From the NCBI GenBank assembly GCA_002305675.1, contig DBQA01000003.1, forward strand, positions 3,278 to 67,277: DNA of 64,000 nucleotides. Reading direction: 5' to 3'. Position numbers and translations under genes: made by a program. The notes under the pieces were generated by a model that saw nothing but the letters and a program-made list of their open reading frames with translations, had not been told where the DNA came from and did no database searches. This document shows, one piece after another, positions 3,896-63,400 of this stretch. Each line of letters begins with the position of its first letter. Positions within the stretch are counted from its first letter, which is position 1. The stretch is from Patescibacteria group bacterium UBA1406 (GTDB taxonomy: Bacteria; Patescibacteriota; Microgenomatia; UBA1406).

Positions 3896-5383
3896 TTAGA
3901 AGGTTGGAACTGCTGTATATTTAACTTTGTTGTAGTAATAGCCTGCTGGCTGGGTGGCTGGGATGCTGATCCGGAAACAGACGTAAGCCTGGCTGTTCGC
4001 CACCGGACCAGCATTGGTCATTAGATGGGCATTGGCATCTGACCGGCTTTCCGCTCCCTGGATATCCGCGAACTGCTTGGCATTGAAGCTGGCGCCGCTC
4101 GTGTTATAGGCAAAAGTGGCATCCGTTCCTTCCAGGGAATAACCCAGGCCGTAATAAGTTCCGGGCGTGGTCCAGTCGCGGTATGTTGTGTGGGAACAAC
4201 CGGTACCGTCGCAGACCGTATCCCTGATGCAGGTGTTGGATCCGAATGTGTACTCCCCAACCGACGGGGCGGTCCCGGTACATTCGGCGCCGTCGCGGCC
4301 CATCTGGTCGTTCTCTTCGACATAGACCTTGTAGCCGCTGATGGCGTTGGTGGTGACCGTGAGCTGCTGTGCGGTGTTATGCGTTGCAGCCACATATGAT
4401 GAGGAAACGGTTCCCCAGGGAACGGCTGTAGCCGTAGTATCCGGACTGGAGGCGGTTCTCGTGACCCCGCAGACGGTTGAGCTGTCCGAGGTTACGCCAG
4501 CCACGATAAAGGTCAGTGATTCCTCGACCGAGGCCGACACCAAAACTCCTTCCACGACGGCGACCGAGACGTCCTGACTCTCTATCTGGACATTGCTGCT
4601 GTCGTGGGTGCTTATGGTAATGGTGTAGACATCGGCTGTGCCGGCGCTTGCGCCGGTGACTTTGGCCGGATTGACAAGCCCCTTGGTGCCGTCGCCTACG
4701 GTCATGGTGATGGTCCCGCCCGTACACTGCGTAGTGGTGACCTGCTGGTAGGAGTGGCCGTTGCCCGAGCCCGCGGTGACTGTCTCGGTGCCGCTCCAAG
4801 TACAACCGGTCCCGCCGCTCACCGACATGTTGGTGGCGTCCATCTGGTTTAGGTCAAATCCGTTCGTGGCTAGAGATGCGGTGGTATCCGGTGCCCCGTC
4901 ATTGCCGTTGGTAGGAGGGTCGGGAATGGTCACCTTGGCATAGCCGTTGACAGGAATGGAGCTGCCCAGGGTGAAGGTGACGGTCAGGGTACCCGACTGG
5001 GTGCTGTAGACAGGATCCCCGTTACTGGCGCCGACTGTTATCCCAGAGGTCAGAACGAAGGTGTCCGAATCCACAATGCTTGCCACCGTCTTGTTCCCGT
5101 TGGGGCCGACGGACACGGTGTCGTTGGGGAACAGGTGGTTTGTATTGTTGTCCGGGTTGCTGCTGGTCTGGATGTCTATGGTGTTGTCCGAAGCCGTGTG
5201 TGTTCCGTTGACTTTCGCATAGTAGGATGTGCGGGTATTGGAGAGGGTAGCTGATGCGCTGCTGATGGCCCGGTCTACCTTGTTCGGACTGACCAGGGTG
5301 AAAGCGAAAAAGGACTGGAAGACAATCATTGCGGCCAGTGTCTGGTACACCAATATATGCAGGGGGTTTTTCTTTTTAATCAT
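3896..5383 (-). CDS. secreted T/S/G/N-rich surface protein with a WxL-like C-terminal domain
   Basis: Signal/anchor LVYQTLAAMIVFQSFFAF. The C-terminal ~200 aa is paralogous to 9207-9929 (GYKVYVEEND, YGLGYSLEGTD, ending QPAGYYYNKVKYTAVPTF). Its stop lies 2 nt before the next gene's start. Confidence 0.5.
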   Translation of the reverse strand: MIKKKNPLHILVYQTLAAMIVFQSFFAFTLVSPNKVDRAISSASATLSNTRTSYYAKVNGTHTASDNTIDIQTSSNPDNNTNHLFPNDTVSVGPNGNKTVASIVDSDTFVLTSGITVGASNGDPVYSTQSGTLTVTFTLGSSIPVNGYAKVTIPDPPTNGNDGAPDTTASLATNGFDLNQMDATNMSVSGGTGCTWSGTETVTAGSGNGHSYQQVTTTQCTGGTITMTVGDGTKGLVNPAKVTGASAGTADVYTITISTHDSSNVQIESQDVSVAVVEGVLVSASVEESLTFIVAGVTSDSSTVCGVTRTASSPDTTATAVPWGTVSSSYVAATHNTAQQLTVTTNAISGYKVYVEENDQMGRDGAECTGTAPSVGEYTFGSNTCIRDTVCDGTGCSHTTYRDWTTPGTYYGLGYSLEGTDATFAYNTSGASFNAKQFADIQGAESRSDANAHLMTNAGPVANSQAYVCFRISIPATQPAGYYYNKVKYTAVPTF

Positions 5384-5492
5384 ATATAAATAAGGAATTT
5401 CTAGTGAAACTTAACGGACTAAGAATATTAGATAACTATTTGATTTTTTTGTCAAGCGAATAAGTAAACCGTTTCAGACTGAAAGAAAGGTA

Positions 5493-5521
5493 TTGACAAA
5501 AATTTTCACGAGTGTTACATT
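5493..5521 (+). promoter_or_regulatory. sigma70-type promoter (TTGACA, 17-nt spacer, TGtTACATT)
   Basis: TTGACA at 5493-5498, 17-nt spacer, extended -10 ending TACATT at 5516-5521, upstream of the PaaX-like gene. Confidence 0.5.
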
Positions 5522-5569
5522 TATGGGTAATTAGCCTAACAGGCTGTTTAAAAGTTAATAAATACTCCG

Positions 5570-6313
5570 ATGGTCGCATCCGTAAAAGAAAGACGTACCC
5601 GCATCCTGATTACGTTATTCCTGTTGGGAAAGGACAAAGCCCACCCCCTTTTCGACCCGAAGATCAAGCAGTCGTTTTCCATTCCCTCCGATTCGCCCCG
5701 CTCAAGGGGGACCATCAGGCAGATGCTACTTGACAAGGTGATCGAGAAAGAGGAGGAGGGAGTATACCGGATCACGGAAGAAGGTATCAAAGAACTGTCG
5801 CTATCCTTCCCTTTCGTCCGTTTCTCCGTCTTCGGCTGGGACGGCAAGTTCAGGATCATCTCCTACGAGATACCGGAAAAGAAACGCAAACTGCGTGACA
5901 GTCTGCGACGGGAGATCAGCGGCTGGGGCCTTGGTCCATGGCACCGGTCCTTCTGGGTGACACCACATCCCATTGTCAACGACCTCGAGCTTCTGGTCAA
6001 AGATACCAACTGGGAGCCTTTCATCCAGGCCTTCGAAGGATCCCACCTGGTAGGGGAGGAAAAGGTTCTGGTGGACAAGGTCTGGGCGGTCAGCAAACTG
6101 GAAGATGTGTACAAGGGCATATTCAAGAAATGGCATGAAACCCTGTCCAACGACGGCTGGTCCAAGGAAAGGAAAATGAAGGAAGTGGTCGATTCGTATC
6201 TGGATGTGCTGAAAGCGGATCCCGGGCTGCCCAAGGAGCTTTTACAGGGGGGCAAATGGATCGGTCATGAGGCCTGGGAGATCTTCCAGGAAATGCGGAA
6301 CATTCTCATCTAA
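5570..6313 (+). CDS. PaaX-family transcriptional regulator (wHTH + PaaX_C-like)
   Basis: WDGKFRIISYEIPEKKRKLRDSLRREISGWGLGPWHRSFWVTPHP matches the PaaX core pattern. N-terminal wHTH-like GTIRQMLLDKVIEKEEEGVYRITEEG. Confidence 0.6.
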   Translation: MVASVKERRTRILITLFLLGKDKAHPLFDPKIKQSFSIPSDSPRSRGTIRQMLLDKVIEKEEEGVYRITEEGIKELSLSFPFVRFSVFGWDGKFRIISYEIPEKKRKLRDSLRREISGWGLGPWHRSFWVTPHPIVNDLELLVKDTNWEPFIQAFEGSHLVGEEKVLVDKVWAVSKLEDVYKGIFKKWHETLSNDGWSKERKMKEVVDSYLDVLKADPGLPKELLQGGKWIGHEAWEIFQEMRNILI

Positions 6314-22707: not shown

Positions 22708-22853
22708 AGAAGATAAGAGGTAAAGCATACCCCCTTGGGGTATGATGGAAGCCGGTGGAATTCCGGCGCTGTGCCGCAACGGTAAAGCCCGAAAACAATT
22801 CTTATCTTGTCCCGGTGCTCTAATTTTTAGCCGGGAGAATCTCGAGCAGGAGA
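22708..22853 (+). promoter_or_regulatory. cobalamin (B12) riboswitch-like 5' leader
   Basis: P1 AAGATAAGA (22710-22718) pairs with TCTTATCTT (22800-22808). Hairpin CATACCCC/GGGGTATG. Core ATGGAAGCCGGTGGAATTCCGGCGCTGTGCCGCAACGGTAA resembles the consensus AGGGAA-GGTG-AAATCC-GC-CCCGC-ACTGTAA. 3' hairpin TCCCGG/CCGGGA, then AGCCGGGAG, then SD AGGAG at 22848-22852, 7 nt before ATG 22860. Confidence 0.7.
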
Positions 22854-22859
22854 AAAAAT

Positions 22860-23945
22860 ATGAAGCAGACAGAATCCATCAGACCATACACGCCGACGGA
22901 CCTCAGACAGCGGATCGCCCACTTTTATGATGTGCCGGCCGAACGGACGCTGGTTCGGGGACTCATCAGGGACGGCGCACCCAGAGAGTACGTAAATGCC
23001 TATATCGAGGGGAATGTGCTCAAGTTCGCCATGGAGTTCGGAGCCGGCGTCAGGAAAACCTCCATCACCTATCGGATAGGCGACGCGAACAGGATATATT
23101 ATCCCGGTTTCCAGAGACCTGCCGAGGCCATGTTCAGCGCTTCCGCCGCCAGGGCAGGTGGTGGATCCCGGGAGATGGCCGAACTCTCGGGTTGGCAGAG
23201 AGTGGAGGAGCTTCTGACGCAAGGCGGGTATGGCAACGTCATCCAGCTTTCGCCTCCGAGCGCCGACCACCGCGATCACGGCGATTACGGTTTCCTGTTC
23301 TGGTTCGAAAGACAGGGAGACGAGGTGGTCAACCATATTTTCCGGTACGATGAACCCAAGAAGGGTGGCCTACCGGCGAGCCGGCTCTTGGCCGGCGCTT
23401 TTGGCCTGTCTGACGACATGGCCGACGAGAAGGATTTTTTACGCCTGCCCATCCCATTGATCGCGGGGAAAGGGGCGATCATCGACCGGCTGAAGGCGAT
23501 GGGCCTGGAAACATCCCAGCTCGCGGCCGAGGAGCTCGAAAAAAGGCTGAGAACGGATCCTATTGTCCGAAACGCCCTCTGGCAGTACAAACATGCCCTT
23601 TTGCAGGCTACTCCGGAAAGTTTTACCAACCGCGGCGGTTGGCATGGGTCGCCGGAAGAGTTACTATCCATAATTTATGAACGATCCTATCAACTTGCCT
23701 CTGCCCAGGGATTCTTGGACAGGCGTTACCAGGCGCCTTTGCCGCCTGTATTTGCGGGCGGGAGCTGCCCCGTGACACAAAGCGGAATGTCAAACTACAG
23801 CTATGCGGACTGGCTGCTAAGAAAGCCCTTTGAATGTCCCAAATGCGGCTATATCAGTTATGTCCCGGTTGGCAACCGCTGTCCCGGCTGCAAGATCACC
23901 AAGGAACAGTGGGCGGCGGAAAACGAGACGGAGGTTTGTGAATGA
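22860..23945 (+). CDS. hypothetical cytoplasmic protein with a C-terminal zinc ribbon (riboswitch-controlled)
   Basis: 361-aa ORF with no signal peptide or TM. C-terminal FECPKCGYISYVPVGNRCPGCK. SD-led, directly behind the riboswitch-like leader. Confidence 0.6.
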   Translation: MKQTESIRPYTPTDLRQRIAHFYDVPAERTLVRGLIRDGAPREYVNAYIEGNVLKFAMEFGAGVRKTSITYRIGDANRIYYPGFQRPAEAMFSASAARAGGGSREMAELSGWQRVEELLTQGGYGNVIQLSPPSADHRDHGDYGFLFWFERQGDEVVNHIFRYDEPKKGGLPASRLLAGAFGLSDDMADEKDFLRLPIPLIAGKGAIIDRLKAMGLETSQLAAEELEKRLRTDPIVRNALWQYKHALLQATPESFTNRGGWHGSPEELLSIIYERSYQLASAQGFLDRRYQAPLPPVFAGGSCPVTQSGMSNYSYADWLLRKPFECPKCGYISYVPVGNRCPGCKITKEQWAAENETEVCE

Positions 23946-24893: not shown

Positions 24894-25448
24894 ATGAATG
24901 TCTCGCGGGTGGTGATAACACTGGTGGCGATCGCTTTTCTGGCCGTGGCGGTGACCCGGATATTTCCCATCAGGCGGCCGCAGCAAACCATCATCGTCCC
25001 TACGCCTACTCCGGCAGACACTGTCGCCCCGCAGGAGGGGTCCTTCAATATTTTCCTGGTCGCGCTGGAAGGTGAGGCGGCGGAAGGGAAGACCTTCGGT
25101 TGCGGGGATGTCCTGGTGCCTGTGTCCCGGCAGGCGCCCGAGGGCGTGGACGCTTTGTCCGCGGCCATTATCGAACTTCTGGAGGTGGAAGGGCCCATGG
25201 TGGACGCTGGTGGGCGGGAGCTTTACAATTCCCTTTACCAGTCGGACCTGACCTTTAAGGCAGCCCGAGTTGAAAATCGCACGGCCGTGATCGAATTGTC
25301 TGGTAATTTAATACTTGGAGGTGTTTGTGACAACCCAAGAGTAGTGGAACAGCTATCCCAAACAGCTCTTCAGTTTGGCACAATAGAAAACGTGGAAATA
25401 TTTCTTAACGACCAGCCTTTGGATGAAGCGCTCTCACTTGCGGGATAG
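24894..25448 (+). CDS. membrane-anchored GerMN-like domain protein
   Basis: Start at MNVSRVVITLVAIAFLAVAV (ATG 24894). FGCGDVLVPVSRQ...AVIELSGNLILGGVCDNPRVVEQLSQTALQF...VEIFLND pattern. Confidence 0.5.
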   Translation: MNVSRVVITLVAIAFLAVAVTRIFPIRRPQQTIIVPTPTPADTVAPQEGSFNIFLVALEGEAAEGKTFGCGDVLVPVSRQAPEGVDALSAAIIELLEVEGPMVDAGGRELYNSLYQSDLTFKAARVENRTAVIELSGNLILGGVCDNPRVVEQLSQTALQFGTIENVEIFLNDQPLDEALSLAG

Positions 25449-25452
25449 ACTA

Positions 25453-26064
25453 CTACCCAGTCTCTGCCTGCCTTTCGGCCTCTTCCCTTCGCGCCTTCCG
25501 AATCGGGTTCATCAGCGCCAGGGCATAGTCGATGTCATCCTCCTGCAGGCCGTAGTCAGTCGGATGGAGAGAAATATCCTTGACATCATCATAAAAACCC
25601 AAGGAGAATCTGAGAATTTTTCCCGAATCAAATACGCCGTGCAAAGACAGCTCCTGACGGAAGGCGCCTTGCCTGACCAGCATCTCCTTAAGTTGTCTGA
25701 CGCATCTTTTGGGCAAAAGGGCGGCGTGTGAATTCAGGACCATTTTGCAGGCATCATAAACGCGGGTATAGTTGGATCTTAGCTTCTCATAATCGTCCTC
25801 TTTTAGTACAGGAGCATACTCGATGATTTGCCTGATGCCCATTAGAGGGCCAACGAGGTCGCCGCCAAGCTCGCCGACAATGATGCCCCTGACGGCTTTG
25901 GCGGTATCAATTCCCGCCAATCCCTGCAAGGTAGCCACGTCATTATTTAACCATTGCACCCATTGTCTGGCTGGATCAGGAGGTGTTTGGGGGGAAGGTT
26001 CGGTTAGGGCTTCGGTGCGGTTCAACACAGCTAATATTATAACTAATACCGCCTTAGATAGCAA
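25453..26064 (-). CDS. hypothetical secreted protein
   Basis: 203-aa ORF with a TTG start and a short N-terminal hydrophobic segment, downstream of the DUF2795-like gene. Confidence 0.4.
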   Translation of the reverse strand: MLSKAVLVIILAVLNRTEALTEPSPQTPPDPARQWVQWLNNDVATLQGLAGIDTAKAVRGIIVGELGGDLVGPLMGIRQIIEYAPVLKEDDYEKLRSNYTRVYDACKMVLNSHAALLPKRCVRQLKEMLVRQGAFRQELSLHGVFDSGKILRFSLGFYDDVKDISLHPTDYGLQEDDIDYALALMNPIRKARREEAERQAETG

Positions 26065-26096
26065 AACCCACTCAGCATTCCCGCAGTTATTTTCAA

Positions 26097-27208: not shown

Positions 27209-27235
27209 CCCCCCGCCCAAAAAGCGGGGGGTTTT
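27209..27235 (+). terminator. rho-independent terminator
   Basis: CCCCCCGC-ccaaaaa-GCGGGGGG followed by TTTT, 7 nt after the stop at 27202. Confidence 0.85.
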
Positions 27236-27309
27236 CCTTTGATTTCATATTTCGCCCCCGATAATATATAATAAGATTTACCTAAATCTCAGGCTCTAAA
27301 AGCGGAAAT

Positions 27310-27380
27310 AGGGGCGTAGTTAAATGGCATAATAGAGGTCTCCAAAACCTTTGTTGGGGGTTCGATTCCCTCCGCCCCTG
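27310..27380 (+). tRNA. tRNA-Trp(CCA), 3' CCA not encoded
   Basis: Acceptor AGGGGCG/CGCCCCT, anticodon stem GAGGT/ACCTT with loop CTCCAAA, T arm GGGGG-TTCGATT-CCCTC, discriminator G at 27380. TATAAT at 27267-27272 lies upstream. Confidence 0.85.
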
Positions 27381-27385
27381 CATAC

Positions 27386-28540
27386 ATGGCCAGGGTTAAG
27401 ATATCCGAATTCCAAGCCAAGGAACTCCTGAAGCAGGAGCTTGGCCTCGATTGGCAGGCCGTTTCCGTCAATTCCGACATCAAGGCCGAGACCATCGCCG
27501 AAGCCTTCGGCGCACGCAAACTGGTGGCCAAGGTGGACCAGGGAGTGAAGCAGAGGGGAAGGAAGGGCCTTCTGGCCATATCGGATGATCCCGCCATCAT
27601 AGTGAAGTTCATCCGGGATAAAGGCCGGGAGGGTTACCGGCAGTTTATCATTGAGCCGTTCATAGAGCATCTGCCCGACGAAGAGCAGTACCTGTCGCTG
27701 GAGCGTGTCCGGGAGGGTATAAAGGTCCTGTATGCCGAACGGGGTGGGGTAGATGTGGAAGACAACTGGGATCTGGTCGGGTCACATATCAGCCGGTCCG
27801 AGGTCAGGGAGTTCACGGACAGACTGATGACGGTATTTGATAAGTACCACTTGTCGTTCCTGGAGATAAATCCTTTGGTAACAAATAAAAGCGGTTTGCA
27901 TATCCTGGATCTGGCCGTGGAGATGGATGACGCGGCCCTGAATTTGCCGGAAGTCAGCGCTAAAGGTCTGGTACCTGTCACCGAAAGGGACGTTCACCCC
28001 GCCGAAAAGGCCGTTCGGGAACTGGACGGGAATACCCCGGCCTCCCTGAAGTTTAGAGTCATGGATCCCGACGGTTCGATCTGGATGTTATTGTCAGGGG
28101 GCGGAGCCAGCCTGGTACTGGCGGACGAGATCGCAGATCTGGGGCGGGGGAGGGATCTTGGTAACTATGGGGAATACAGCGGCAACCCGACGACAGAAGA
28201 CACCTATCTCTATACCAGGACCGTTCTCCAGACCATGTTGCGATCAAAAGCAAGGAAAAAGCTTCTCATTATTGCCGGGGGAGTCGCTAACTTTACCGAC
28301 GTTAAAAAAACGTTTGCCGGCGTAATTAAGGCTTTGGACGAATTCAAAACGGACCTGAAAAAACAGCGGATCAAAGTTTTTGTCAGGCGGGGGGGGCCCA
28401 ATCAGGAGCAAGGCTTGAAACTGATGGCCTCTTTTCTACGAACTGCCGGCCTGTATGGTGCGGTGATGGGTCCTGATAGAGAATTAACGGACGTGGTAAA
28501 AGTTGCTCTTAAAGGGCTGAAGGATAACCCTGATGCTTGA
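27386..28540 (+). CDS. ATP-citrate lyase small subunit-like (AclB/CcsA-type ATP-grasp + citrate-binding module)
   Basis: ISEFQAKELL, VAKVDQGVKQRGRKGL, FIIEPFIEH, FLEINPLV, LLSGGGASLV, GNYGEYSGNP, IIAGGVANFTDV, VFVRRGGPNQEQGL. By eye this is collinear with the N-terminal ~420 aa of eukaryotic ACLY and unlike SucC at the diagnostic strings. Confidence 0.8.
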   Translation: MARVKISEFQAKELLKQELGLDWQAVSVNSDIKAETIAEAFGARKLVAKVDQGVKQRGRKGLLAISDDPAIIVKFIRDKGREGYRQFIIEPFIEHLPDEEQYLSLERVREGIKVLYAERGGVDVEDNWDLVGSHISRSEVREFTDRLMTVFDKYHLSFLEINPLVTNKSGLHILDLAVEMDDAALNLPEVSAKGLVPVTERDVHPAEKAVRELDGNTPASLKFRVMDPDGSIWMLLSGGGASLVLADEIADLGRGRDLGNYGEYSGNPTTEDTYLYTRTVLQTMLRSKARKKLLIIAGGVANFTDVKKTFAGVIKALDEFKTDLKKQRIKVFVRRGGPNQEQGLKLMASFLRTAGLYGAVMGPDRELTDVVKVALKGLKDNPDA

Positions 28541-29474
28541 TATAAATAAGATCAGACAAGAGCGATCCAACAACATTCTTATTTTGGGAAACCATCCCCA
28601 GATAATCCAGTCCATACTGGACTTTGACTACCTTTCAGGCAAAGATGAGCCTTCGATCAAGGCCATCGTCGGCAATTCCCGGGGCTATGCCAAATACTTC
28701 TGGGGAAGACAGGAGCGCCTGTTCCCGGTCTATGCGGACATTCCGGAGGTGCCTCAGAAAGAGAGGGTGGGCTATTTTCTCAACCTGTTCTCGGGCAGAA
28801 GGGCCCTTTCATCGGGGCAATCGGTCCTGTCCGCCTTTCCAGGATTGTCCGTCGGAGTCTTCTTTGCCGAGAACGTTCCGGAAAGGCATGCCCTGTCACT
28901 TTACCGGCTGGCCGGGAAAAAGGACCTGACCCTGATCGGCCCGGCGAGCGTGGGCTTGGTCGTTCCGGGCGTCCTGAAGCTCGGACCTATTGGTGGCATT
29001 ACCCCCGAACAGATCGATGAGGCAGGGTTGACGCGGACGGGAAGGGTCGCCTGTCTGTCCGCCTCGGGCGGCATGACCAACGAGCTTATCAATGCCGTCG
29101 CCAGGCACGGTAAAGGCCTGTCGTTCAGCCTGTCCTTTGGCGGGGACAGGTTTCCCCTCCTGACCGTGGCGGACGCATTCCTGACGGCACAGAACGACCC
29201 GCAAACCGAGGAGATAGTCTACTATGGGGAACTCGGAGGGGAGGACGAATACGACCTCATAAGACTGAGGGAAGAAAAACAACTGACAAAGCCCGTCTAT
29301 GCCCATATAGCCGGAACGGTGGCCGATTTGTTTCCCGAAAGTCCGCAGTTTGGCCACGCCAAGGCCAAGGCCTCCAGGGAAAGGGAAAAGGCGTCCGTGA
29401 AGAGGCGCTCGCTGGCCGGGGCTGGTCTTAAGGTCAGCGGCAATTTCGCCGATCTGTTAAAATTTCTTAAATAA
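28533..29474 (+). CDS. ATP-citrate lyase CoA-ligase module (succinyl-CoA-synthetase-alpha-like, phosphohistidine loop); N-terminal half of AclA / CcsB-like
   Basis: ILDFDYLSGKDEPSIKAIV, KYFWG, LIGPASVGLVVPG, LSASGGMTNELINAV, PQFGHAKA. 8-nt overlap with the upstream ORF. Confidence 0.8.
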   Translation: MLDINKIRQERSNNILILGNHPQIIQSILDFDYLSGKDEPSIKAIVGNSRGYAKYFWGRQERLFPVYADIPEVPQKERVGYFLNLFSGRRALSSGQSVLSAFPGLSVGVFFAENVPERHALSLYRLAGKKDLTLIGPASVGLVVPGVLKLGPIGGITPEQIDEAGLTRTGRVACLSASGGMTNELINAVARHGKGLSFSLSFGGDRFPLLTVADAFLTAQNDPQTEEIVYYGELGGEDEYDLIRLREEKQLTKPVYAHIAGTVADLFPESPQFGHAKAKASREREKASVKRRSLAGAGLKVSGNFADLLKFLK

Positions 29475-29478
29475 ACCT

Positions 29479-30288
29479 ATGTCCAAACCGACAGACCTGA
29501 AAAACAGAAAATCCACTCTTTTTACGAGTACCATCTCCGGAGACAAAAACGGTGAAACATATACTCTGGGGGAAAGCCTAACAGGTTTTACAAAAAAACA
29601 CACGTTTGCCTATATTACCGGTTCTCTATTGATAGGCAGGAAGCTGAGGTCAGAAAAGACGGAGGAGTTCATCAATACCGTCCTTAAGCTCTTGGTGGAC
29701 CACGGCCCGTATGTCTCCGGCAGCGTCAACACCATGGTCGCCGCCCGGGCGGGCAAAGACATGGTCTCCTCGCTTGCGAGCGGGCTTCTGACCGTGGGCA
29801 ACCGTTTCGGCGGGGCCATCAACGCGGCGGCGGAGGTGTGGTTCCGGAATGTCGAGGCCGGGAAAGCTGCCCAAACGCTGGTCGAGGAATTTGCCGGCCG
29901 GAAACAGTATATCCCGGGCATCGGCCACCGCAAATACCGGGTAGACCAGAAGGATCCGCGGGTCACCGCCCTCCAGGGACAGGGGCTGGGCTTGGCAAAG
30001 CATGCTTATCTTGACTATGCCATGGCAGTGGAAAAGATCACCACGGCCAAGAAAGCCAACCTCATCCTGAATGTCGATGGGACCATCGCGGCGGTCATGC
30101 TGGACCTTTTGGAAACTGAAGAGAATATGTCCCCGAAAGAGATAGAGGACCTTATCAGGGCTGAATTCTTCAACTCTTTGTTTGTAATTTCACGTACGGT
30201 TGGTTTTATTGCCCATTACCTTGACCAGAAGCGCTTGAACGAACCCCTCTTCCGATTAAATGAGGAGGATGTTCTGACTGTTGAATAA
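29479..30288 (+). CDS. citryl-CoA lyase module (citrate-synthase-homology domain); C-terminal half of AclA / Ccl-like
   Basis: LLVDHGPYVSGSVNT, ARAGKDMVSSLASGLLTVGNRFGGA, IPGIGHRKY, KKANLILNVDG, VGFIAHYLDQKRL. Confidence 0.8.
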   Translation: MSKPTDLKNRKSTLFTSTISGDKNGETYTLGESLTGFTKKHTFAYITGSLLIGRKLRSEKTEEFINTVLKLLVDHGPYVSGSVNTMVAARAGKDMVSSLASGLLTVGNRFGGAINAAAEVWFRNVEAGKAAQTLVEEFAGRKQYIPGIGHRKYRVDQKDPRVTALQGQGLGLAKHAYLDYAMAVEKITTAKKANLILNVDGTIAAVMLDLLETEENMSPKEIEDLIRAEFFNSLFVISRTVGFIAHYLDQKRLNEPLFRLNEEDVLTVE

Positions 30289-30292
30289 ACCC

Positions 30293-30817
30293 ATGAAACT
30301 GATAGTCGGCCTTGGCAATACCGGCGGCGAATACATGAAGCACCGGCACAACGTCGGATTCATGTTCGTGGATTATTTTATTGATATATCAGAGCCTGTC
30401 CGTCCCACTTTCCGAAAGTTCAAAAGCGATATCGCAGAGGTTAGGCACACGGGTGAGAAGATCTGGCTGGCCAAGCCTCTGACATTCATGAACAGGTCGG
30501 GGGAGGCTGTCCGGCAGATAATCAGGAATACACCAATGACTACGAACGACCTGATCGTTGTCCATGACGACCTGGACCTAAGCCTGGGGAGTTTCAAGAT
30601 CCAGAAGGGCAAAGGCCCCAAGGTCCATAATGGCATTATCAGTCTGGAGAAGGAGCTCGGGAAGGAGGATTTTGTCCGGGTCAGGGTTGGAGTGGACAAC
30701 CGGCCGGCGGATAACCGGGCAAGCGGGGAAAAGTATGTCCTGTCCGATTTTTTGCCGGAGGAGGAAATGCAGGTTAAGGCGGTCTTTCCTGATATAGTCA
30801 TAAAACTGTTTGCATAA
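30293..30817 (+). CDS. pth: peptidyl-tRNA hydrolase
   Basis: MKLIVGLGNTGGEYMKHRHNVGFMFVD, PLTFMNRSGEAV, VVHDDLDL. Confidence 0.9.
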   Translation: MKLIVGLGNTGGEYMKHRHNVGFMFVDYFIDISEPVRPTFRKFKSDIAEVRHTGEKIWLAKPLTFMNRSGEAVRQIIRNTPMTTNDLIVVHDDLDLSLGSFKIQKGKGPKVHNGIISLEKELGKEDFVRVRVGVDNRPADNRASGEKYVLSDFLPEEEMQVKAVFPDIVIKLFA

Positions 30818-30819
30818 CT

Positions 30820-31656
30820 ATGCTCATCGGCGGCCACGTATCCATAGCGGGCGGGATAAGCAAAGCCGTGGAAAGGGCGGCCGAGAGGGGGTTCAACGTC
30901 ATCCAGATGTTCGCCAGCTCTCCCCGGTCCTATAAGGTCAACGCCTATCCTGATAAGGAGATAGACAGGTTCCGCACTCTTTATCGGGAGCACGGCATGA
31001 GAGGGCTTTTCTTCCACGCCATCTATCTTCTCAATCTGGCGAGCAGCAATCCGGACCTGGTGGGATTATCGGTCGATTCGCTCGTGGGCTACATGCAATT
31101 TGGGACGGTGCTCGGGGCAATCGGAACCATCTTTCATATCGGCAGTTCAAGGGAAAGGGATTTTGACGGCGTCAAGGACCAGGTGGTAGATAAGATGACC
31201 GAAATTTTGCAGAAAACGCCTGAGGATCAGTTCCTCATCATGGAGAACGCGGCCGGCAGCGGCCGGATAGTGGGCGATACTCTCGCCGAGCTTGTATACA
31301 TTTTCAAGCGCCTTAATTCGCCCCGTGTCAAGGTATGCCTGGACACCCAGCATTTATTTGCAACAGGCATTGACCTACGCCGGCAGGACGCTTGCCATGA
31401 TTGGCTCAAGGAATTTGATCAAAAAATCGGCCTTGATAACCTGGCTTGCGTACATACGAATGATTCCAAAGCTCCATTGGGCAGCAAAAAGGACAGACAC
31501 GAGAATATCGGTCAGGGAGAAATAGGTTCGACCGGCTTGAAGAACTTCCTCAGCCACCCGTTCATGAAAGACAAACCGCTTATTCTGGAAACGCCGGGTT
31601 TTGATGACCAGGGCCCTGATCGGAAGAATGCGGATATCTTAAGGCGACTTTTTTGA
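30820..31656 (+). CDS. nfo: endonuclease IV (AP endonuclease family 2)
   Basis: MLIGGHVSIAGG, FNVIQMFASSPRS, FHAIYLLNLAS, VCLDTQHLFATG, HTNDSK, DRHENIGQGEIG. Confidence 0.9.
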   Translation: MLIGGHVSIAGGISKAVERAAERGFNVIQMFASSPRSYKVNAYPDKEIDRFRTLYREHGMRGLFFHAIYLLNLASSNPDLVGLSVDSLVGYMQFGTVLGAIGTIFHIGSSRERDFDGVKDQVVDKMTEILQKTPEDQFLIMENAAGSGRIVGDTLAELVYIFKRLNSPRVKVCLDTQHLFATGIDLRRQDACHDWLKEFDQKIGLDNLACVHTNDSKAPLGSKKDRHENIGQGEIGSTGLKNFLSHPFMKDKPLILETPGFDDQGPDRKNADILRRLF

Positions 31657-31676
31657 ATATCTGATATCCTTTTTTT

Positions 31677-32504
31677 ATGGACATTTCCAAATTCACCCGT
31701 AAAGGGAAAATCCTGATGCTGGCCCTGGACCACCGGGGAAGCTTTGTAAAGCTTATAGATAAGGATCATCCTGAACGGGTTAAGCCGGAGGATGTCGTTA
31801 ACGTGAAGCGCCAGATTATAGAAGAGCTGAAAGACGACTTTTCCGGTATCCTCCTGGACCCGGAGAGTGGCTTGAGTGCCTATCATAAAAAAAAGCCGTA
31901 CCTCTTGTGTATGGAAAAAACCGGCTACCTTGATTCAAACGGCGAGCGGGTAACGGAACTTGAATACACGGCCGAAAGCTTGAGAACATTGGGTGCGGAC
32001 GGAATAAAGCTCCTGATATATTTCAATCCCCAGGCTGCCAGCGCCCGGAAGCAGTTGGAAACTGCCAGACAAGCTCTAGCAGATAGTCGGGCGGCTGGTT
32101 TGCCTTTATTTTTGGAGATCGTGACCTATGATCTGGAAAAAGCGAACAATCATAAACCGGAGCTCGTGGTGGATTCGCTGAACATGTTTCTGGAAGCAGG
32201 AATAATAGCGGACGTTTTTAAACTTGAATATCCCGGTGACCCGGCCTCCTGCTTCTATATTACCCGGCTCCTGAAGAAAACCCCCTGGATACTTTTGACC
32301 AAAGGCGAGAACTACGCCAAGTTTCGGGACGAGCTCAAGACAGCCGCTATGAACGGGGCAAGCGGCTTCCTGGCCGGCCGGGCTGTCTGGCAGGAGTTCG
32401 GTAAATACCCGGCGGACAAACGGCCGGACTTCTTCAGGAATGTTGCCCGGGAACGTTTCCGCGAAATATCGGCCACCGTACTGGAGGCGCAATTTCCGTC
32501 TTGA
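31677..32504 (+). CDS. LacD-family class I aldolase (tagatose-bisphosphate-aldolase-like / DUF2090-like)
   Basis: ILMLALDHRGS, DVFKLEYPGD, GASGFLAGRAVWQE. ATG lies 6 nt after TGaTATCCT. Confidence 0.65.
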   Translation: MDISKFTRKGKILMLALDHRGSFVKLIDKDHPERVKPEDVVNVKRQIIEELKDDFSGILLDPESGLSAYHKKKPYLLCMEKTGYLDSNGERVTELEYTAESLRTLGADGIKLLIYFNPQAASARKQLETARQALADSRAAGLPLFLEIVTYDLEKANNHKPELVVDSLNMFLEAGIIADVFKLEYPGDPASCFYITRLLKKTPWILLTKGENYAKFRDELKTAAMNGASGFLAGRAVWQEFGKYPADKRPDFFRNVARERFREISATVLEAQFPS

Positions 32505-57511: not shown

Positions 57512-60376
57512 TTAAGGCCTCCCCGTCGGGAACGGCGCGCTGTTTGCCGGATTGAAAATGACCTGACCGGCCCTGAGCTCCAGTTCCCTGATGCCGAGCC
57601 TTTTGCGGAAATCCTCAATTTTATCGGCGACCGTTTTCAATGTCGGATTGGCAGAAAGGGCAGGAGCGAACCGCGGGTCCCTCTCTGCCATGAGCAGGAT
57701 CTGTCTGGCACAGACCAGGAAGGTCTCCGCCCGGTACCTTTCCGCCGAGATGGTGGTGTTATTCTGCCTCTGTTCCGCCACTTCATCCACCTGGTCGCCC
57801 AAGGCGTCGAGATGCTCATCCGTCTTCAAGAGCAATTCGCACAGCTGATCTTCCGTATCGGTCATGCTCAGACCGACGTTGAAAGTGACGGCTGCATTGT
57901 CTATCTCGGGCTTGGTCAACTGGTTGTTGAAGGCCCTCTCTCCGGTCCAGCCAAGGTTGGCAAACAGGGTGTCGCCGGTGATGTGATTGGCGAGCGCACT
58001 GACCGACCTGAAGAAACGGTGGCCGGTAATGCCCATTTCCTTAGCTTTTTTGTGGACGAAGTAGACCGTGAAAAGGAAAGACAGGGAGTGGGGTTCGCCC
58101 ATCCCCACCTGTCCGCTCCGGGAATAAAGGCTTTCTGTCAGCCTGGAGACATTCCCTTCTAACAGCTCGGGATTTTCGGCCATCACCCAGGTCAGGAACA
58201 GGGCCATCTGCTTGTTGAGCACGTCCTGTTTGGCAACATCCTCGGCGGCGGCTCCTTTTTCGGTGATCAGGCCGACCCGGTTCTGGATGAAGTGCCGGAA
58301 CAGGGACTCCACTATTGTTTTCTGGACCGTGGTCATATTGTCGATGGAGCGGCCCATCAGTTGCTGGGTTTCCTCATTGCCCGGTCGTCCATATATCCCG
58401 CGCAGGCCGGCCGCGAACTTCTTGTAATATTCAAGGGAGGACACGGAACAGAGTAGGTAAAATAGATGGTTCGGGTTCTCTCTGAGCTTCTCATTGATAT
58501 CGGCCACGGCCGCCTTGGTGGTATGCTTGTCCGCGCCATGTGCGCCTTCCTCCGTATTGCCGTGCGAGAACATGCCGATGACGCTGACCGCCTGGTGGGA
58601 GAGCGGACTGGCGATGATCTCGGAGGCCAGATTGCGGTAATCGGCCGAAGCGCCGGCATCGAAGTGGTCGGTGAACTGTCTCAAGGTGGCGTCCAGGTAG
58701 CTCTCCGGGCCGCGGTTGAAGATCCTTTGCCAGTAACGCATCATCACTACCGGCAGGAAACCGGTGTTGCCGGAATTGCCGTCCTTCCGGCCGGCGCGTG
58801 ACCCGAACAGTCTCGCGTCCGAGGCGGCACTGATGAGCTGCCCCTCTGACGAGATACCAAGCTCGGGGTAGCTGAACCGGTTCACGGCCGGCAAAGCCAG
58901 CATCAGGGCTGACAGGGGGTCGGTGGAAGAGAATTTTTTCACCAGGCCCAGTCTTTGCTCGCCGAGTTCCTTGATAACCGGCGCGGCATTTCGGGACGGG
59001 CTCGGAATGATCTCCCTGCCCATGATGTGCTTGTATCTGGCCGCTTCGACAAGAGTCAGTTTCAGAAGTGTTTCGGAGAGGCTCGGCCAGCCATCCTCTG
59101 TCACCAGGAGGTCGGCGACCTCATTGGTCTCTGAATCCTCGAGATTGGTCGGCCGGGCGCTGAGTGCGTCCCGGATGAACAGATGGTTGACGTCGAAACC
59201 GAAGGCCGAGAACAGACGCTGATAGTGACCGATATACGTCGCATCGCTCAAGCCCGGGGGTTTTTGGTCCGGGCCAGGTTGCCAAACCTTCCGCAATAGC
59301 GAGTCAAGGATGGCAGGATAGGCCCATTTGGACGACCGGCCCATCTCCGTCAGCTTGGTGCTGCCCTGCTTTTGCAGTTCGGCCAGTTTGCGCCGGTGGT
59401 CGCCAACGGTGGTATCCATGACGGCGTGGGCCAGGCGGTTCGTCAGATAGAACAGGACCAAGGAGGAGACTGCCTCCGCCGGAACCGTCGTCAGATCGGT
59501 ACCGTCAACATTCCAAATGACATTGTCATGGACGGCAGCAGCGGTCGACACGGAGCCAGTTGCCAGGGTGGAAAGGCGGGTAAGGCCCTGCTTGGTCCCT
59601 TTGGGAAGTTCAAAACCGCGTCCGTGCTCGGCGATCTTGGTCCCGACCTTGGAAACGCCGTATCCGGCCATTAGGCCGAGAAGGCCGATGACCAACGGGC
59701 CTATGTTGACGGTTTCGGGACGCAGTTCCGGAGCGTATTTGGCTATCTCCGTCAGAAGCAAAGGGAGGGAAGCCGCCAGAGTGGGCAGGCCGTACTCGGC
59801 CGCCTTCTTCAGAAGATCGCGCTCGAACTGGACCAGTCGCATCTGGGGCCGGAACTCGGTATCCAGGTCTCCTGACAGTAAGCTGAAAACCAGGTCGGGC
59901 GTGAGTTTTGGTGAATGTTCCAGAGTCTCGGATAGTAGTCTGACGCCTTTGGGAAGATGTCCAGGCCTCATGGATGCCCTTTGCCGGGGAGACGTCTCCT
60001 CACCGAGTAGTGAATACCTGTCCACACCCTCGACCGTCTTGGAGTCGGGCGTGTTCAGGTAGAAGGAGGTGATGAGGTCCCTGATCTTTGTCTGCTGCTC
60101 GGTGTCGCCGGCAAAAGTGGCCAGGTTGTAAGCTATCAATGGGGCCAGAAGCCATTTGCGGTCCGACCGGAAGGCTTCACCGAACAGGGGCTCGAAATGC
60201 TCGAATCCGGACAGGTGGCTGGCCTGCATCCGCTGTCTCAAACCGTGGAGCGGGCCGGGAAGACCTATCTTACCCCGGTTCCGCCATTCCTTGATGGGGC
60301 CGCGGATTTTGGCATGCATGAACTGCCGTAATTCCTCAGTGTCCAGATAGACAGAGTGGTCGGGAGTTCTCGCCAT
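57512..60376 (-). CDS. large orphan protein (954 aa), no recognisable domain
   Basis: Uninterrupted ORF. ATG lies 6 nt after a minus-strand TGcTATACT (-10 at 60383-60388). One central hydrophobic stretch (IGPLVIGLLGLMAGYGV). Confidence 0.6.
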   Translation of the reverse strand: MARTPDHSVYLDTEELRQFMHAKIRGPIKEWRNRGKIGLPGPLHGLRQRMQASHLSGFEHFEPLFGEAFRSDRKWLLAPLIAYNLATFAGDTEQQTKIRDLITSFYLNTPDSKTVEGVDRYSLLGEETSPRQRASMRPGHLPKGVRLLSETLEHSPKLTPDLVFSLLSGDLDTEFRPQMRLVQFERDLLKKAAEYGLPTLAASLPLLLTEIAKYAPELRPETVNIGPLVIGLLGLMAGYGVSKVGTKIAEHGRGFELPKGTKQGLTRLSTLATGSVSTAAAVHDNVIWNVDGTDLTTVPAEAVSSLVLFYLTNRLAHAVMDTTVGDHRRKLAELQKQGSTKLTEMGRSSKWAYPAILDSLLRKVWQPGPDQKPPGLSDATYIGHYQRLFSAFGFDVNHLFIRDALSARPTNLEDSETNEVADLLVTEDGWPSLSETLLKLTLVEAARYKHIMGREIIPSPSRNAAPVIKELGEQRLGLVKKFSSTDPLSALMLALPAVNRFSYPELGISSEGQLISAASDARLFGSRAGRKDGNSGNTGFLPVVMMRYWQRIFNRGPESYLDATLRQFTDHFDAGASADYRNLASEIIASPLSHQAVSVIGMFSHGNTEEGAHGADKHTTKAAVADINEKLRENPNHLFYLLCSVSSLEYYKKFAAGLRGIYGRPGNEETQQLMGRSIDNMTTVQKTIVESLFRHFIQNRVGLITEKGAAAEDVAKQDVLNKQMALFLTWVMAENPELLEGNVSRLTESLYSRSGQVGMGEPHSLSFLFTVYFVHKKAKEMGITGHRFFRSVSALANHITGDTLFANLGWTGERAFNNQLTKPEIDNAAVTFNVGLSMTDTEDQLCELLLKTDEHLDALGDQVDEVAEQRQNNTTISAERYRAETFLVCARQILLMAERDPRFAPALSANPTLKTVADKIEDFRKRLGIRELELRAGQVIFNPANSAPFPTGRP

Positions 60377-60450: not shown

Positions 60451-63400
60451 ATGGAAAGGCGCGAAACGTCACTAAGGGTCAAATATCTGGGCTTAATGGT
60501 CCTCGGAGCCTTGTTTCTGGCCGGGTGCATGACCAACGAACAGCAGCAGGCCTGCGGGGATATTCAGGCCGGCCGGTCGGTGTCGCAGGATTATCTTTAC
60601 CAGTGCCTCTTGGCTCTCGGCAATACGCCGGAGAAACTGACGGAGTACCGGCAGAACTACCAGCGACAGATATCTGCCGTTGTATCCGCGAACTGTACCA
60701 TCCCGGGTGCTGCCTATGACGGACGGCGCCACTACGTGGCTTCACGGTCACTGGGAGTGGACTGTGAGGTCAGGGGAGAGCATCTGCCACCGGCCGTCAT
60801 CGGACTGAACGGATTGACGATAGAACTGGCAGGCGAAACAAAGGCCACCCCTGAAGAACCATTGCTTCGCCGCTACACCATCAGCGGACAGTTGGCCGAA
60901 AGAGGCGCCCAGGCATTGAAACTATCCTTCTATAACGGCCGGGACCGCTTCTGCGCCGACTCCACCTTGGAAAACTTCCATCTCCTGCCTACCCAGTGCG
61001 TGACCCTGAAAGACCCTCTCCTGACCGAGCCCATCAACCTGGATTATGAAGTAGTCTTTGACGATACGGCTCCAGATATCTCCGGAGAGGGGATAGGCAT
61101 GCAAAACGGGCTGGTGTCGGCTGCCTTTACAGCTCAGGACCCCCAGAGCGGCCTGGCATGGGCCACTGTCAACGGTCAGCCCGCCACGGTGGGGGATGGC
61201 GGCAGAGTGGAGATACAGGAACGGGTCAGGGAGGGGGAGAACAGGTATGTGCTTGAAGCCTGTAATCCCCTCAATATGTGCGAACGGGCGGAGCTCGTGG
61301 TCAGCGATTCGACCCCGCCGGTCCTGAATATCGAAAGTGCGGTCATGCAGGACGGACTGATCAGGATAATACTCGGCGCCTTGGATCCGGAAAGCGCTAT
61401 CGAATATGCAGCGGTCGGGCAGACGGTCTTCACCCCTGACGGCGACGGCCGGGTGGAGGCCCTTTTGCCGGTGTCGGAAGGGGAGAATAACGTGCAAATA
61501 GTGGTGAAAAACAGGGGGGGATTGTCTGCCGAGGCCAACATCACCCTCAGGGACGAAACGCCGGCCGCGATCGGCGGACTGGAAAGTAAGGTGGAACAGG
61601 GATTGTTCGCAATGGATTTTCTGGCGGTCGACCGCGAGAGCGGGATACGGGAGGTGGTGTGTCGGGAAATCAGGCAGAGCGGGGAGACAGATGAGTGGCC
61701 GGCGGAATTTGCCGGGGATAACAGGTTTGGCTGCCGGCGGCCTGTCGGACAAGGTAGCGTCCGTTTGGAAGCCAGCGTGAGGAATAATGTCGGCCTTGAG
61801 ACGGCCATCGGGGAAGGGTTCGTCTATGACCTTCTCAAACAGGTGGGAGAGGTCAATCAGGAATTCAATAATAAAGAACTAGTAATGGTAATGGGGTATA
61901 CCAGCAATCTAGACCCGGGAAAAACCCGGGCAGGTTTTTCCCAGGATACGGTCTATTCTTTAAGGAAGGCCGGTGAGTGCACGGTCCAGGATTATGCCAC
62001 TGGAGAAGGGGGCTTTTTAGTTATCGGGTGTCAGACGAACGACAAAGGTAAGGGTACGGTCAGTATCACCATCACCGATAAAGCCGGTAATTCGGTCACT
62101 CTGGGTGACATCGCCATCGCCGTGCCTGAGATCGCCGGCCTGGAAAAGACCGCCTTCTGGATCGCAGCCGTTACCGGTCTTCTCACCGCCACCGCCCTGG
62201 TCACCAAGGGGATCTCACTGCACCGGAAGCACCGGGACAAGAAAATGAGAGATGAGATCAGGGGTTATATAAGAAGGGGCGATACCGAGGCGATAAATAA
62301 ACATCCATACCGTGACCGTTACCTGGCCGAGGCCAGGGACATGGAGTATCTGCTCCTGGCCAAGGAGAAGGCTAGAGTCAGGGATATTGCCCAGGCTGCC
62401 GGCATGGTCGAGAGGTTCATGGACAGACACCGGAAAAGCGAAGCGGCGGCAGAGGTGGTTTTCCACCTGGAAGAGGCACAGGAGCTTCTAGTCGAAGCCG
62501 TTTACGAGCGGATTAGCGCATTAATGGGCAGCGGGACACTTATCACCGATGAAGGGTTACAGACATTCCTGAAGACAATGCGTACTTACGACTGGCTGTG
62601 GACCCGGCTGAGAAAGCGCGTGTCCGGTGAGCGTTTGAATGCCGTTACCTGGCTGACGGTGGTGGAAGCGGCCTCGGACAACAGCCTGTTCAGGAAAGGC
62701 AAGGCGGAGCGCATCTTCGGCTGCAAAGGCCAAAGACTGGCTCAGACGGTTGGAATACTTTGCTCGGTGGGAGACTATTGCGCGGCAGAGACGTCACTTA
62801 GATACCTGTCCAAAGTGGAGTCGGTTGGCAAGGCGGAAGAGGTTTACCGTAGCGGATTGGCGGAATGGATGGGTAAGTTAAGGGAGGTCGTATCCCATGG
62901 TAATGGCGCCATCAGAGAGCTTGAGGAGATGGGAAAAAGGTACCGGCTCACCGATGAGGCGCGGCGTCTTTTGGAAAAGGAAAAAACGCGCCTGAAGCAG
63001 TCCGCGACAGTGGCGGAGTTGTTGGAAGCGTTCCATAACTATATCCAGGCAGATGTGGATGATTTTTCGGTCTGGGAAAAGAAGGCCGATGCCTGCGGAC
63101 TGTCCCCGGCTAAAAAAATCAGCCGCAGGGAGGCTGAGGCGGCCAGGGCGGTGGCCAGAGCGCTGCAACCCGGCGTATGGCGGCCCGTCCAGATCCCGTA
63201 TTTTCTGGGCTTTACCGAGGCCGACAAGAATCTACCGTTCGAAGATTTCTATAGCGAATTGAAGTTCCGCCTACAGCGGCTGGCCACGAGCCTCGACCAT
63301 CACCGTTCCTGTCTGCAATCCCAGGAAGGTCTGGACAGGGACATCCGGATGGAAGTGGTATTGGACAACACCCATTCGGAAGTGATAAGATGGGTGGGCA

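Follow-up and report, generated by a model that had tools for sequence, protein, structure and literature searches.

The evolution of ATP-citrate lyase (ACL) is usually drawn as a one-way path of fusion, from a citryl-CoA synthetase (CCS) with a separate citryl-CoA lyase (CCL), through the two-subunit AclAB, to the single-chain ACLY. The CCS/CCL system of Hydrogenobacter thermophilus (CcsA/CcsB plus Ccl, PDB 6hxq and 6hxp) consists of three proteins, including a standalone lyase of about 260 aa, whereas in ACL the lyase is covalently fused to the CoA-ligase part. Within the candidate phyla radiation (CPR), a two-subunit ACL was reported from Gracilibacterium as 'rarely detected in CPR', and citrate scavenging was proposed for it (Sieber et al. 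2019, PMC6851277). Enrichment of aclAB in metagenome-assembled genomes (MAGs) of Saccharimonadia was found in 2025 (PMC12577380), and a 2022 preprint described CPR/DPANN sequences that are mis-annotated as succinyl-CoA synthetase (SCS) or citrate synthase (CS) and group with CCS/CCL (10.1101/2022.10.25.513756). Here we describe a locus in a 64,000-nt stretch of contig DBQA01000003.1 from Patescibacteria group bacterium UBA1406 (the whole stretch being referred to below as the window), in which three consecutive open reading frames (ORFs) are together predicted to encode a complete ATP-citrate lyase of the ACL type, with AclA divided between the second and the third:

27386-28540, plus strand: ORF1, 384 aa, AclB-like subunit with the ATP-grasp and citrate-binding domains
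28533-29474, plus strand: ORF2, 313 aa, N-terminal half of AclA with the CoA-binding and phosphohistidine (CoA-ligase) domains
29479-30288, plus strand: ORF3, 269 aa, standalone citryl-CoA-lyase module corresponding to the C-terminal half of AclA

These three plus-strand frames, the 8-nt overlap of ORF1 and ORF2 (ATGCTTGA, as read from the junction sequence) and the 4-nt gap before ORF3 had been described in an initial annotation of the window and were confirmed, and all of the motifs quoted there are present. ORF2 ends with a TAA at 29472-29474, directly past the final helix of the ligase part, and ORF3 begins with the ATG at 29479 in a different frame. Residues 1-17 of ORF3 have low confidence in the AlphaFold2 (AF2) model and are predicted to be disordered, and this stretch of about 17 residues looks like a residual linker stub.

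From the profile searches, ORF1 gave strong matches to Citrate_bind (PF16114, E = 8.6e-61, 205 bits against a cut-off of 26.8) and to the ACL-type ATP-grasp family PF24948 (Citrate_synth_N, E = 2.3e-32, 112.7 bits against a cut-off of 83), ORF2 matched Ligase_CoA (E = 2.2e-12), and ORF3 matched the C-terminal part of Citrate_synt (PF00285, E = 1e-23, profile positions 160-355 of 357). The initial annotation had named CoA_binding along with these four domain types, and this one profile did not match ORF2 even at E ≤ 10; a fused CPR AclA is equally missed by it. The CoA-binding Rossmann-type domain is nevertheless present in ORF2, residues 12-309 of which align to ACLY 496-794 (E = 7e-53), and its fold is recovered with a TM-score (TM) of 0.91.

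When searched against the PDB sequences, all three proteins ranked ACL ahead of the other families, with matches well outside what chance would give. ORF1 matched human ACLY at 1.5e-64, the Methanothrix soehngenii ACL at 3e-64, Chlorobium AclAB at 2.4e-39 and Hydrogenobacter CCS at 8.8e-13. The corresponding values for ORF2 were 7e-53, 3e-52, 2.5e-26 and 1.2e-22, with SucD at about 2e-20, and those for ORF3 were 2.6e-50, 8e-53, 6e-34 and, for Hydrogenobacter CCL, 1.1e-16, with citrate synthase at 5e-9. The predicted structures gave the same ranking. The AF2 model of ORF2 (pLDDT 91.1, pTM 0.90) superimposes on human ACLY (5tdm_B) with a TM of 0.91 and a root-mean-square deviation of 1.8 Å over 305 columns, and that of ORF3 (pLDDT 81.6) reaches a TM of 0.80-0.81 with lyase modules of ACL, as compared with 0.74 for Chlorobium, 0.73 for Hydrogenobacter CCL and about 0.6 for citrate synthases (Foldseek).

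Three other identities were tried and ruled out. SucCD is rejected by the NCBIfam scores (57 bits for TIGR01016 against a cut-off of 375.55, and 104.4 for NF004230 against 336) together with the PDB and Foldseek rankings; citrate synthase by NCBIfam scores of at most 55 bits against cut-offs of at least 332, by the coverage of only part of PF00285 in ORF3 and by the TM of about 0.6; and membership in CcsA/CcsB/Ccl by the best NCBIfam citryl-CoA-lyase model (97.2 bits against 212), by the PDB E values and by the trees, in which the window sequences group with fused AclA. The earlier claim that these genes are ACL-type, rather than SucCD next to a generic citrate synthase, is thus borne out by the Citrate_bind match, the PDB matches and the sub-cut-off NCBIfam scores. 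In its architecture the locus lacks the covalent fusion of the lyase to the CoA-ligase part that is typical of ACL, and it has a lyase gene apart from both synthetase subunits, as CCS/CCL does. Judged by its sequences, it is best classified as an ACL by descent and an architectural variant of it.

The closest counterparts of the three proteins are the fused CPR AclAB enzymes (Saccharibacteria, Woesebacteria and Levyibacteriota; loci L008 and L015-L033), with which they share domain content and order, catalytic residues, the aclB-then-aclA gene order, an AclA identity of 44-59% at the amino-acid level and the motifs GHAKA and SASGG. The difference is that AclA of the window is made by two genes, cut in the linker with the loss of 10-15 residues, so that the lyase is untethered. 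The Methanothrix soehngenii ACL (PDB 6hxi) has identical domain content and order, with a Foldseek identity of 36-41%. Human or animal ACLY (PDB 6hxh, 6qfb, 5tde and 6hxk) is the best or near-best match in sequence and structure for all three ORFs (TM 0.81-0.91), with the same catalytic centre and CCL residues, and the natural break points coincide with the boundaries of laboratory constructs of ACLY, namely the TEV-cleaved N-terminal part and the isolated CCL core module. In contrast to ACLY, the window enzyme comprises three polypeptides instead of one, lacks the eukaryote-specific linker between the beta-like and alpha-like parts, has a shorter ATP-grasp loop, and carries Ala for R662, Lys for G762 and Phe for Y364.

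The Hydrogenobacter CCS/CCL system likewise consists of three proteins and is presumed to work in the same two stages; however, its sequences are distant (6hxq_B 9e-13, 6hxq_A 1e-22, 6hxp_A 1e-16) and the TM values are lower (0.79 and 0.73). The likeness is a convergent return to this architecture and not a shared retention of it. As for the Gracilibacterium ACL (Sieber et al. 2019, PMC6851277), both enzymes are found in a CPR genome without a tricarboxylic acid (TCA) cycle, and conversion of external citrate into acetyl-CoA and oxaloacetate was proposed there. That enzyme differs in being two-subunit, with a canonical GHAGA loop and an inferred archaeal origin by lateral transfer, whereas the ACL of the window is three-gene and carries GHAKA, and its clade comprises 31 reference-genome loci that, wherever the names are informative, are CPR (Microgenomates-type and Saccharibacteria).

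Residue positions were counted in human numbering through HMMER alignments of the ORFs to ACLY, and the positions of the ATP/Mg and citrate ligands follow UniProt P53396. The ATP/Mg ligands K58, R66, P109-V111, E118, N203 and D216 are identical or conservatively replaced in ORF1, with N203 and D216 unchanged throughout 28 CPR homologues. Among the citrate ligands, G309, N346, T348 and R379 are kept in ORF1 and in 27-28 of the 28 homologues, with T348 replaced by Ser in one. ORF1 is short because it lacks a loop of about 23 residues (human 145-180); other CPR AclB proteins have 376-417 aa.

The residues of the synthesis centre (listed in PMC11365397), G281-283, S308, E599, S663, G664-665, D690/R691, E718 and H760, are conserved in all or nearly all of 60 aligned AclA-type sequences, with S308 read from the alignment of ORF1 to the PDB sequences. 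Their equivalents in ORF2 include E113 for E599 (the Glu of 'AENVPE'), S178-G180 for S663-G665, E233 for E718 (the Glu of 'GELGG') and H275 for H760. In ORF3, the lyase residues H75, H150 and D200 correspond to human H900, H975 and D1026, and they are invariant among 47 standalone homologues. The catalytic His, Asp and Arg positions, the loss of which would have spoken against the initial annotation, are thus retained. Both AclA halves also show strong invariant-column patterns, and from its sequence the window enzyme is probably functional. In the lyase modules of three other loci (L005, L025 and L030), DHGP is changed to DNGP, so that the H900 equivalent becomes Asn, and these proteins may not be fully active.

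To place the split, ORF2 and ORF3 were concatenated and aligned with fused AclA (580 columns, 60 taxa, rooted on Chlorobiaceae AclA), and a separate tree was made for the lyase module. The split forms are monophyletic, with 98% bootstrap support and 100% on re-analysis with two distance measures. They lie inside a CPR clade (96-99%) whose remaining 24 members are fused, and the next outgroup (P0125, 100%) and all further outgroups (Chlorobium-type and ACLY-like) are fused as well. The ORF2 half alone recovers split monophyly at 88-90%. Since the split clade is nested and the other members of the CPR clade and the outgroups are fused, parsimony calls for a fused ancestor and one fission. From the junction alignment, ORF3 begins about 10 residues ahead of the conserved 'RKxT-LFTSTISG', and the cut falls in a non-conserved linker of 20-25 residues in the fused CPR proteins, which is mostly gone (10-15 residues lost). 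These sequence comparisons indicate that the three-gene form is one derived, lineage-specific secondary fission in the interdomain linker.

The distribution of the two forms was obtained by scanning one genome for each GTDB species, which gave 31 related reference loci. Wherever their names are informative they are CPR (Microgenomates, Levyibacteriota, Woesebacteria, Saccharibacteria, Patescibacteria group), and the gene order of aclB-like, ligase part and lyase part is kept in 31 of 31. A fused AclA frame of 588-684 aa is present in 20 of them and a clean split in 10; the last (L019, Microgenomates OLB23) has a frameshift-like break, which lies inside the ligase domain, and groups with the fused forms. 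The split loci are the nearest relatives of the window, and their ORF2-ORF3 spacers measure 4, 36, 1000, 18, 115, 41, 4, 139, 115 and 118 nt, in varying frames. Locus L005 even holds an unrelated 309-aa ORF of unknown function (4991-5920) between its ORF2 and ORF3 homologues. With nearest relatives that are split at differing spacers and frames, and one with an inserted ORF, the split is seen to be real and stably inherited.

In wider searches, a word-indexed query with ORF3 gave more than 1000 relatives with E ≤ 1e-10. The top 120 are without exception standalone proteins (262-286 aa, 57-66% identity), as are the top 120 relatives of ORF2 (300-388 aa, 52-64% identity). In an exhaustive search of 50%-identity representatives, the standalone ACL-type lyase collapses to essentially one cluster (P0093), and nearly all other full-length relatives are fused, being either AclA-like (575-636 aa) or ACLY-like (900-1160 aa). 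A second split was found on a 4-kb ENA contig (L034/P0146, 1574-3355), where a 276-aa ligase gene is followed by a 275-aa lyase gene. This lyase is 41% identical to ORF3, has no aclB directly upstream and is phylogenetically unrelated to the split of the window.

The initial annotation had presented the three-gene form as an evolutionary intermediate architecture, that is, as a surviving stage between CCS/CCL and AclAB. Three proteins of the sizes of CCS-large, CCS-small and CCL do mimic the Hydrogenobacter system, and the CPR is a deep-branching radiation. However, their sequences are ACL-like, far nearer to ACLY and the Methanothrix ACL than to CCS/CCL; the neighbour-joining trees place them as a nested, monophyletic clade surrounded by fused CPR members, P0125 and the outgroups; the split merely drops 10-15 linker residues relative to its fused kin; and the independent split in L034 shows that fission recurs. 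We consider an ancestral intermediate very improbable on these grounds. Even less credible is a break between ORF2 and ORF3 caused by a sequencing or assembly frameshift or by decay of the gene. L019 does contain a frameshift-like break and is the only locus with the look of an artefact or pseudogene, but the break of the window occurs at the same point in ten other genomes with 44-64% amino-acid identity and differing spacers and frames, two independent assemblies of the locus agree, and conserved catalytic residues, invariant-column patterns in both halves and two confident AF2 models would not be expected of a pseudogene.

Taking these data together, we hold it to be highly likely that the locus encodes a functional CPR-clade ACL whose aclA gene underwent fission in the linker between ligase and CCL, giving three co-transcribed and translationally coupled genes. 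Several observations weigh against this reading. The trees are neighbour-joining trees on corrected distances only, and the ORF3 half alone recovers the monophyly of the split forms at just 50-60%. The human citrate ligand Y364 is Phe in ORF1 and variable across the CPR clade. No citrate transporter and no consumer of acetyl-CoA or oxaloacetate was detected within the 64-kb window by the Pfam scans, which covered 40 other ORFs together with the Pfam calls for the central 20 kb. When flanking ORFs were clustered over 32 loci, no family-wide conserved neighbour of ACL emerged. Finally, an unusual exchange at two positions near the phosphohistidine runs through the whole CPR ACL clade, in fused as well as split forms, with R662 changed to a small residue (in 'SASGG') and G762 to Lys.

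In ORF2 these two positions are A177 and K277, and its phosphohistidine loop reads GHAKA in place of the canonical GHAGA. Among the 60 AclA-type sequences, 34 have only Lys762, 25 have only Lys or Arg at position 662, one has neither and none has both; phylogenetically, the exchange is essentially one event. The pattern may reflect relocation of a positive charge beside the phosphohistidine. As a hallmark of the split, GHAKA is ruled out, being common to all fused CPR forms.

The proposed mechanism follows from the domain assignment. ORF1, with the ATP-grasp and citrate-binding domains, and ORF2, with the CoA-binding and phosphohistidine domains, would form the citryl-CoA-synthetase unit. His275 of ORF2 would be phosphorylated by ATP and would pass its phosphate to citrate bound on ORF1, and the resulting citryl-phosphate would be attacked by CoA to give citryl-CoA. 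ORF3, which is presumably a homotetramer like other CCL modules, would then cleave citryl-CoA into acetyl-CoA and oxaloacetate through H75, H150 and D200. A self-contained conversion of citrate into acetyl-CoA and oxaloacetate, as had been suggested at the outset, is a reasonable function, for which the two-subunit ACL of Gracilibacterium would be the precedent (PMC6851277). By this analogy, the most likely task of the enzyme, in a cell that lacks a TCA cycle, is to make these two products from scavenged citrate. Since no neighbour gene is conserved family-wide, the physiological role is one that we infer, as we do the enzyme activity, the oligomeric state, the docking of ORF3 on ORF1/ORF2, the physiological direction and the source of citrate.

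How tightly the three proteins work together can be read in two ways. They may form a non-covalent holoenzyme, or ORF1 and ORF2 may release free citryl-CoA that is cleaved by an untethered ORF3, as in Hydrogenobacter. This latter reversion to two enzymes is a tentative proposal to which we give real but minor weight. The covalent tether is absent, the N-terminus of ORF3 is predicted to be disordered with no obvious docking element, and isolated human and Chlorobium CCL modules were crystallised with citrate and CoA or with (3S)-citryl-CoA, according to the PDB titles. Spacers of 4 to 139 nt are tolerated, as is the gene inserted in L005, so that strict co-translational assembly is not required. 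On the other side, all split genomes keep the genes adjacent and in the same order, and those of the window are tightly coupled in translation, which favours stoichiometric co-production and possibly a complex.

A separate question is the direction of the reaction. The ACL reaction is reversible, and an ATP-yielding reverse ACL is said to have been proposed for Desulfobacter postgatei by Moller, Schauder, Fuchs and Thauer in 1987. A fermentative CPR cell could likewise make citrate from acetyl-CoA, oxaloacetate, ADP and Pi as a form of substrate-level phosphorylation, a process on which CPR rely (PMC6851277), and a fused-AclA sub-lineage (L011, L016, L018 and L019) has a pyruvate:ferredoxin oxidoreductase (POR) nearby as a source of acetyl-CoA. 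However, no oxaloacetate source, citrate sink or exporter was found in the window or in the locus-neighbour scans, other sub-lineages have the acetyl-CoA consumer GlmU (with GlmS) nearby, for which a supply of acetyl-CoA fits better, and the published interpretation for CPR is citrate cleavage (PMC6851277). The reverse direction therefore appears unlikely to us, and citrate cleavage is the most economical reading, with ATP-yielding synthesis possible but less likely.

In public databases, all three pieces were already named ACL in GenBank (KKU89193.1, KKU89192.1 and KKU89191.1) for a 2015 MAG, Microgenomates group bacterium GW2011_GWF2_47_9. Newer names are 'ATP citrate lyase citrate-binding domain-containing protein', 'hypothetical protein' and 'citrate/2-methylcitrate synthase', and the JGI names are ACL, SCS-alpha or citrate synthase. 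Together with the standalone halves in public data, which amount to at least 120 clusters at 90% identity for each half, this largely amounts to the routine annotation in related genomes that the initial annotation had named as evidence against its reading. The three-gene ACL is not new to databases and is common in one CPR sub-lineage under inconsistent names. In the literature, ACL or citryl-CoA lyase in CPR was met with in survey-level mentions only, and an ACL-type split is described neither in the 'type II ACL' paper (PMC3522073) nor in a 2026 carbon-fixation survey. We found no paper on an ACL-type three-gene split or on its derived nature, which is weak evidence given that subscription journals were mostly outside the search.

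The split shows that the fusion path to ACLY is reversible, with AclA having been cut at the same domain boundary at least twice. Since such fission recurs, three-gene ACL-like loci should not be taken for primitive ones, and the variant of the reductive TCA cycle is poorly indicated by gene architecture alone. With pieces that go by names as inconsistent as 'citrate synthase', 'succinyl-CoA synthetase alpha', 'hypothetical protein' and 'citrate/2-methylcitrate synthase', marker-gene surveys can miss or misclassify CPR ACL or miscall it as CCS/CCL. The locus also adds to the evidence that many CPR of the Microgenomates and Saccharibacteria types hold a citrate-cleaving enzyme despite having no TCA cycle, and points to citrate as a scavenged source of carbon and acetyl-CoA in CPR. 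For enzymology, the synthetase and lyase halves are naturally separate here. If free citryl-CoA is indeed released, this would be a natural and evolutionarily validated separation of the ACL halves and a clean system for the disputed site of citryl-CoA cleavage (the synthetase-homology or the citrate-synthase-homology domain), and it could be used to probe the clade-specific relocation of charge from Arg662 to Lys762 beside the phosphohistidine. Current understanding is not overturned; the main value lies in caution about inference and annotation based on architecture, and in a natural split system.

The three genes are set in a compact stretch of co-oriented features:

27209-27231, plus strand: intrinsic-terminator-like hairpin, strong (8 G-C pairs and a T run), which closes the upstream gene
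27244-27272, plus strand: sigma-70-like promoter candidate, TTCATA-17-TATAAT, 10 of 12 consensus matches, with function inferred from the consensus alone
27310-27381, plus strand: tRNA-Trp (CCA), ending 4 nt 5' of the ORF1 ATG
from 30294 (likely ATG start), plus strand: pth, packed tightly downstream of ORF3
30820-31656, plus strand: nfo-type AP endonuclease (AP_endonuc_2)
31677-32504, plus strand: DeoC/LacD-family aldolase, the last gene of the block 30294-32504

The hairpin marks the 5' boundary of the ACL transcription unit, and the tRNA-Trp and the ACL genes are probably on one transcript. There is no space for a Shine-Dalgarno sequence between the tRNA and the ORF1 start codon. Because the tRNA ends 4 nt before ORF1, with the terminator and the promoter-like site just upstream, the ACL mRNA may be made through tRNA processing and be nearly leaderless. 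L004, which is the closest genome relative, also has an adjacent tRNA-Trp, 62 nt upstream but on the opposite strand.

Downstream, the pth, nfo and aldolase genes named in the initial annotation were recovered, and no terminators lie between them and the ACL genes, of which they are probable operon mates. This neighbourhood is common to L004 only and shows no conserved functional link with ACL. The start of pth is likelier to be the ATG at 30294 (MKLIVGLGN...) than the TTG at 30281 that was chosen by the ORF and gene callers. Its junction, TAA-ACCC-ATG, closely resembles the one between ORF2 and ORF3 (TAA-ACCT-ATG), suggesting that a junction of the termination-reinitiation type recurs in the operon.

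Across the 32 loci, sub-lineages have EF-G, MurB, GroES/EL, POR, or GlmU and GlmS as neighbours of ACL, which is suggestive at most; GlmU, GlmS and MurB belong to cell-wall synthesis. The POR gene (alpha/gamma) lies at about 8.2-9.9 kb in L011, L016, L018 and L019, and GlmU and GlmS lie at about 7.7-9.5 kb in L025, L026, L028 and L030; both are possible hints of acetyl-CoA-linked roles. Many TPA_asm MAG records with CPR-type ACL bear the title 'uncultured Gammaproteobacteria' or 'Pseudomonadales', among them a 938-kb 'chromosome' (OZ246401.1). These titles look wrong because the ACL genes of the records nest within the CPR clade (L005, L008, L010-L014, L016-L018, L020, L021, L023, L024, L030 and L033).

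The CPR context that had been proposed for the window is supported by its leucyl-tRNA synthetase (LeuRS), whose best named relatives are 'Patescibacteria group', Roizmanbacteria and Microgenomates (53-59% identity), and by the names of the genomes with related loci. The rest of the window carries CPR-style housekeeping and cell-envelope genes, including LeuRS, a class I Trp/Tyr-type tRNA synthetase, ComEC/ComEA, sortase, NDK, MreB, many glycosyltransferases and TatD. In agreement with the initial annotation, the Pfam scans detected no TCA-cycle genes within the 64 kb.

The ACL locus is found at 99.6% identity in two independent Logan assemblies (L001 and L002). Just upstream of the operon, a 693-bp segment (25404-26096) with a 203-aa minus-strand ORF (25453-26064, no Pfam match) is a strain-variable insertion, in the place of which contig L001, otherwise 99.6% identical, has only 50 bp. 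Further upstream, a cobalamin riboswitch at 22748-22853 (35.4 bits against a gathering score of 31.5, a partial model match) is followed after 7 nt by a 361-aa ORF (22860-23945) with no Pfam match, which could be an uncharacterised B12-regulated protein or transporter. Two very large ORFs without any Pfam match lie at 57512-60376 (minus strand, 954 aa) and 60451-63522 (plus strand, 1023 aa).

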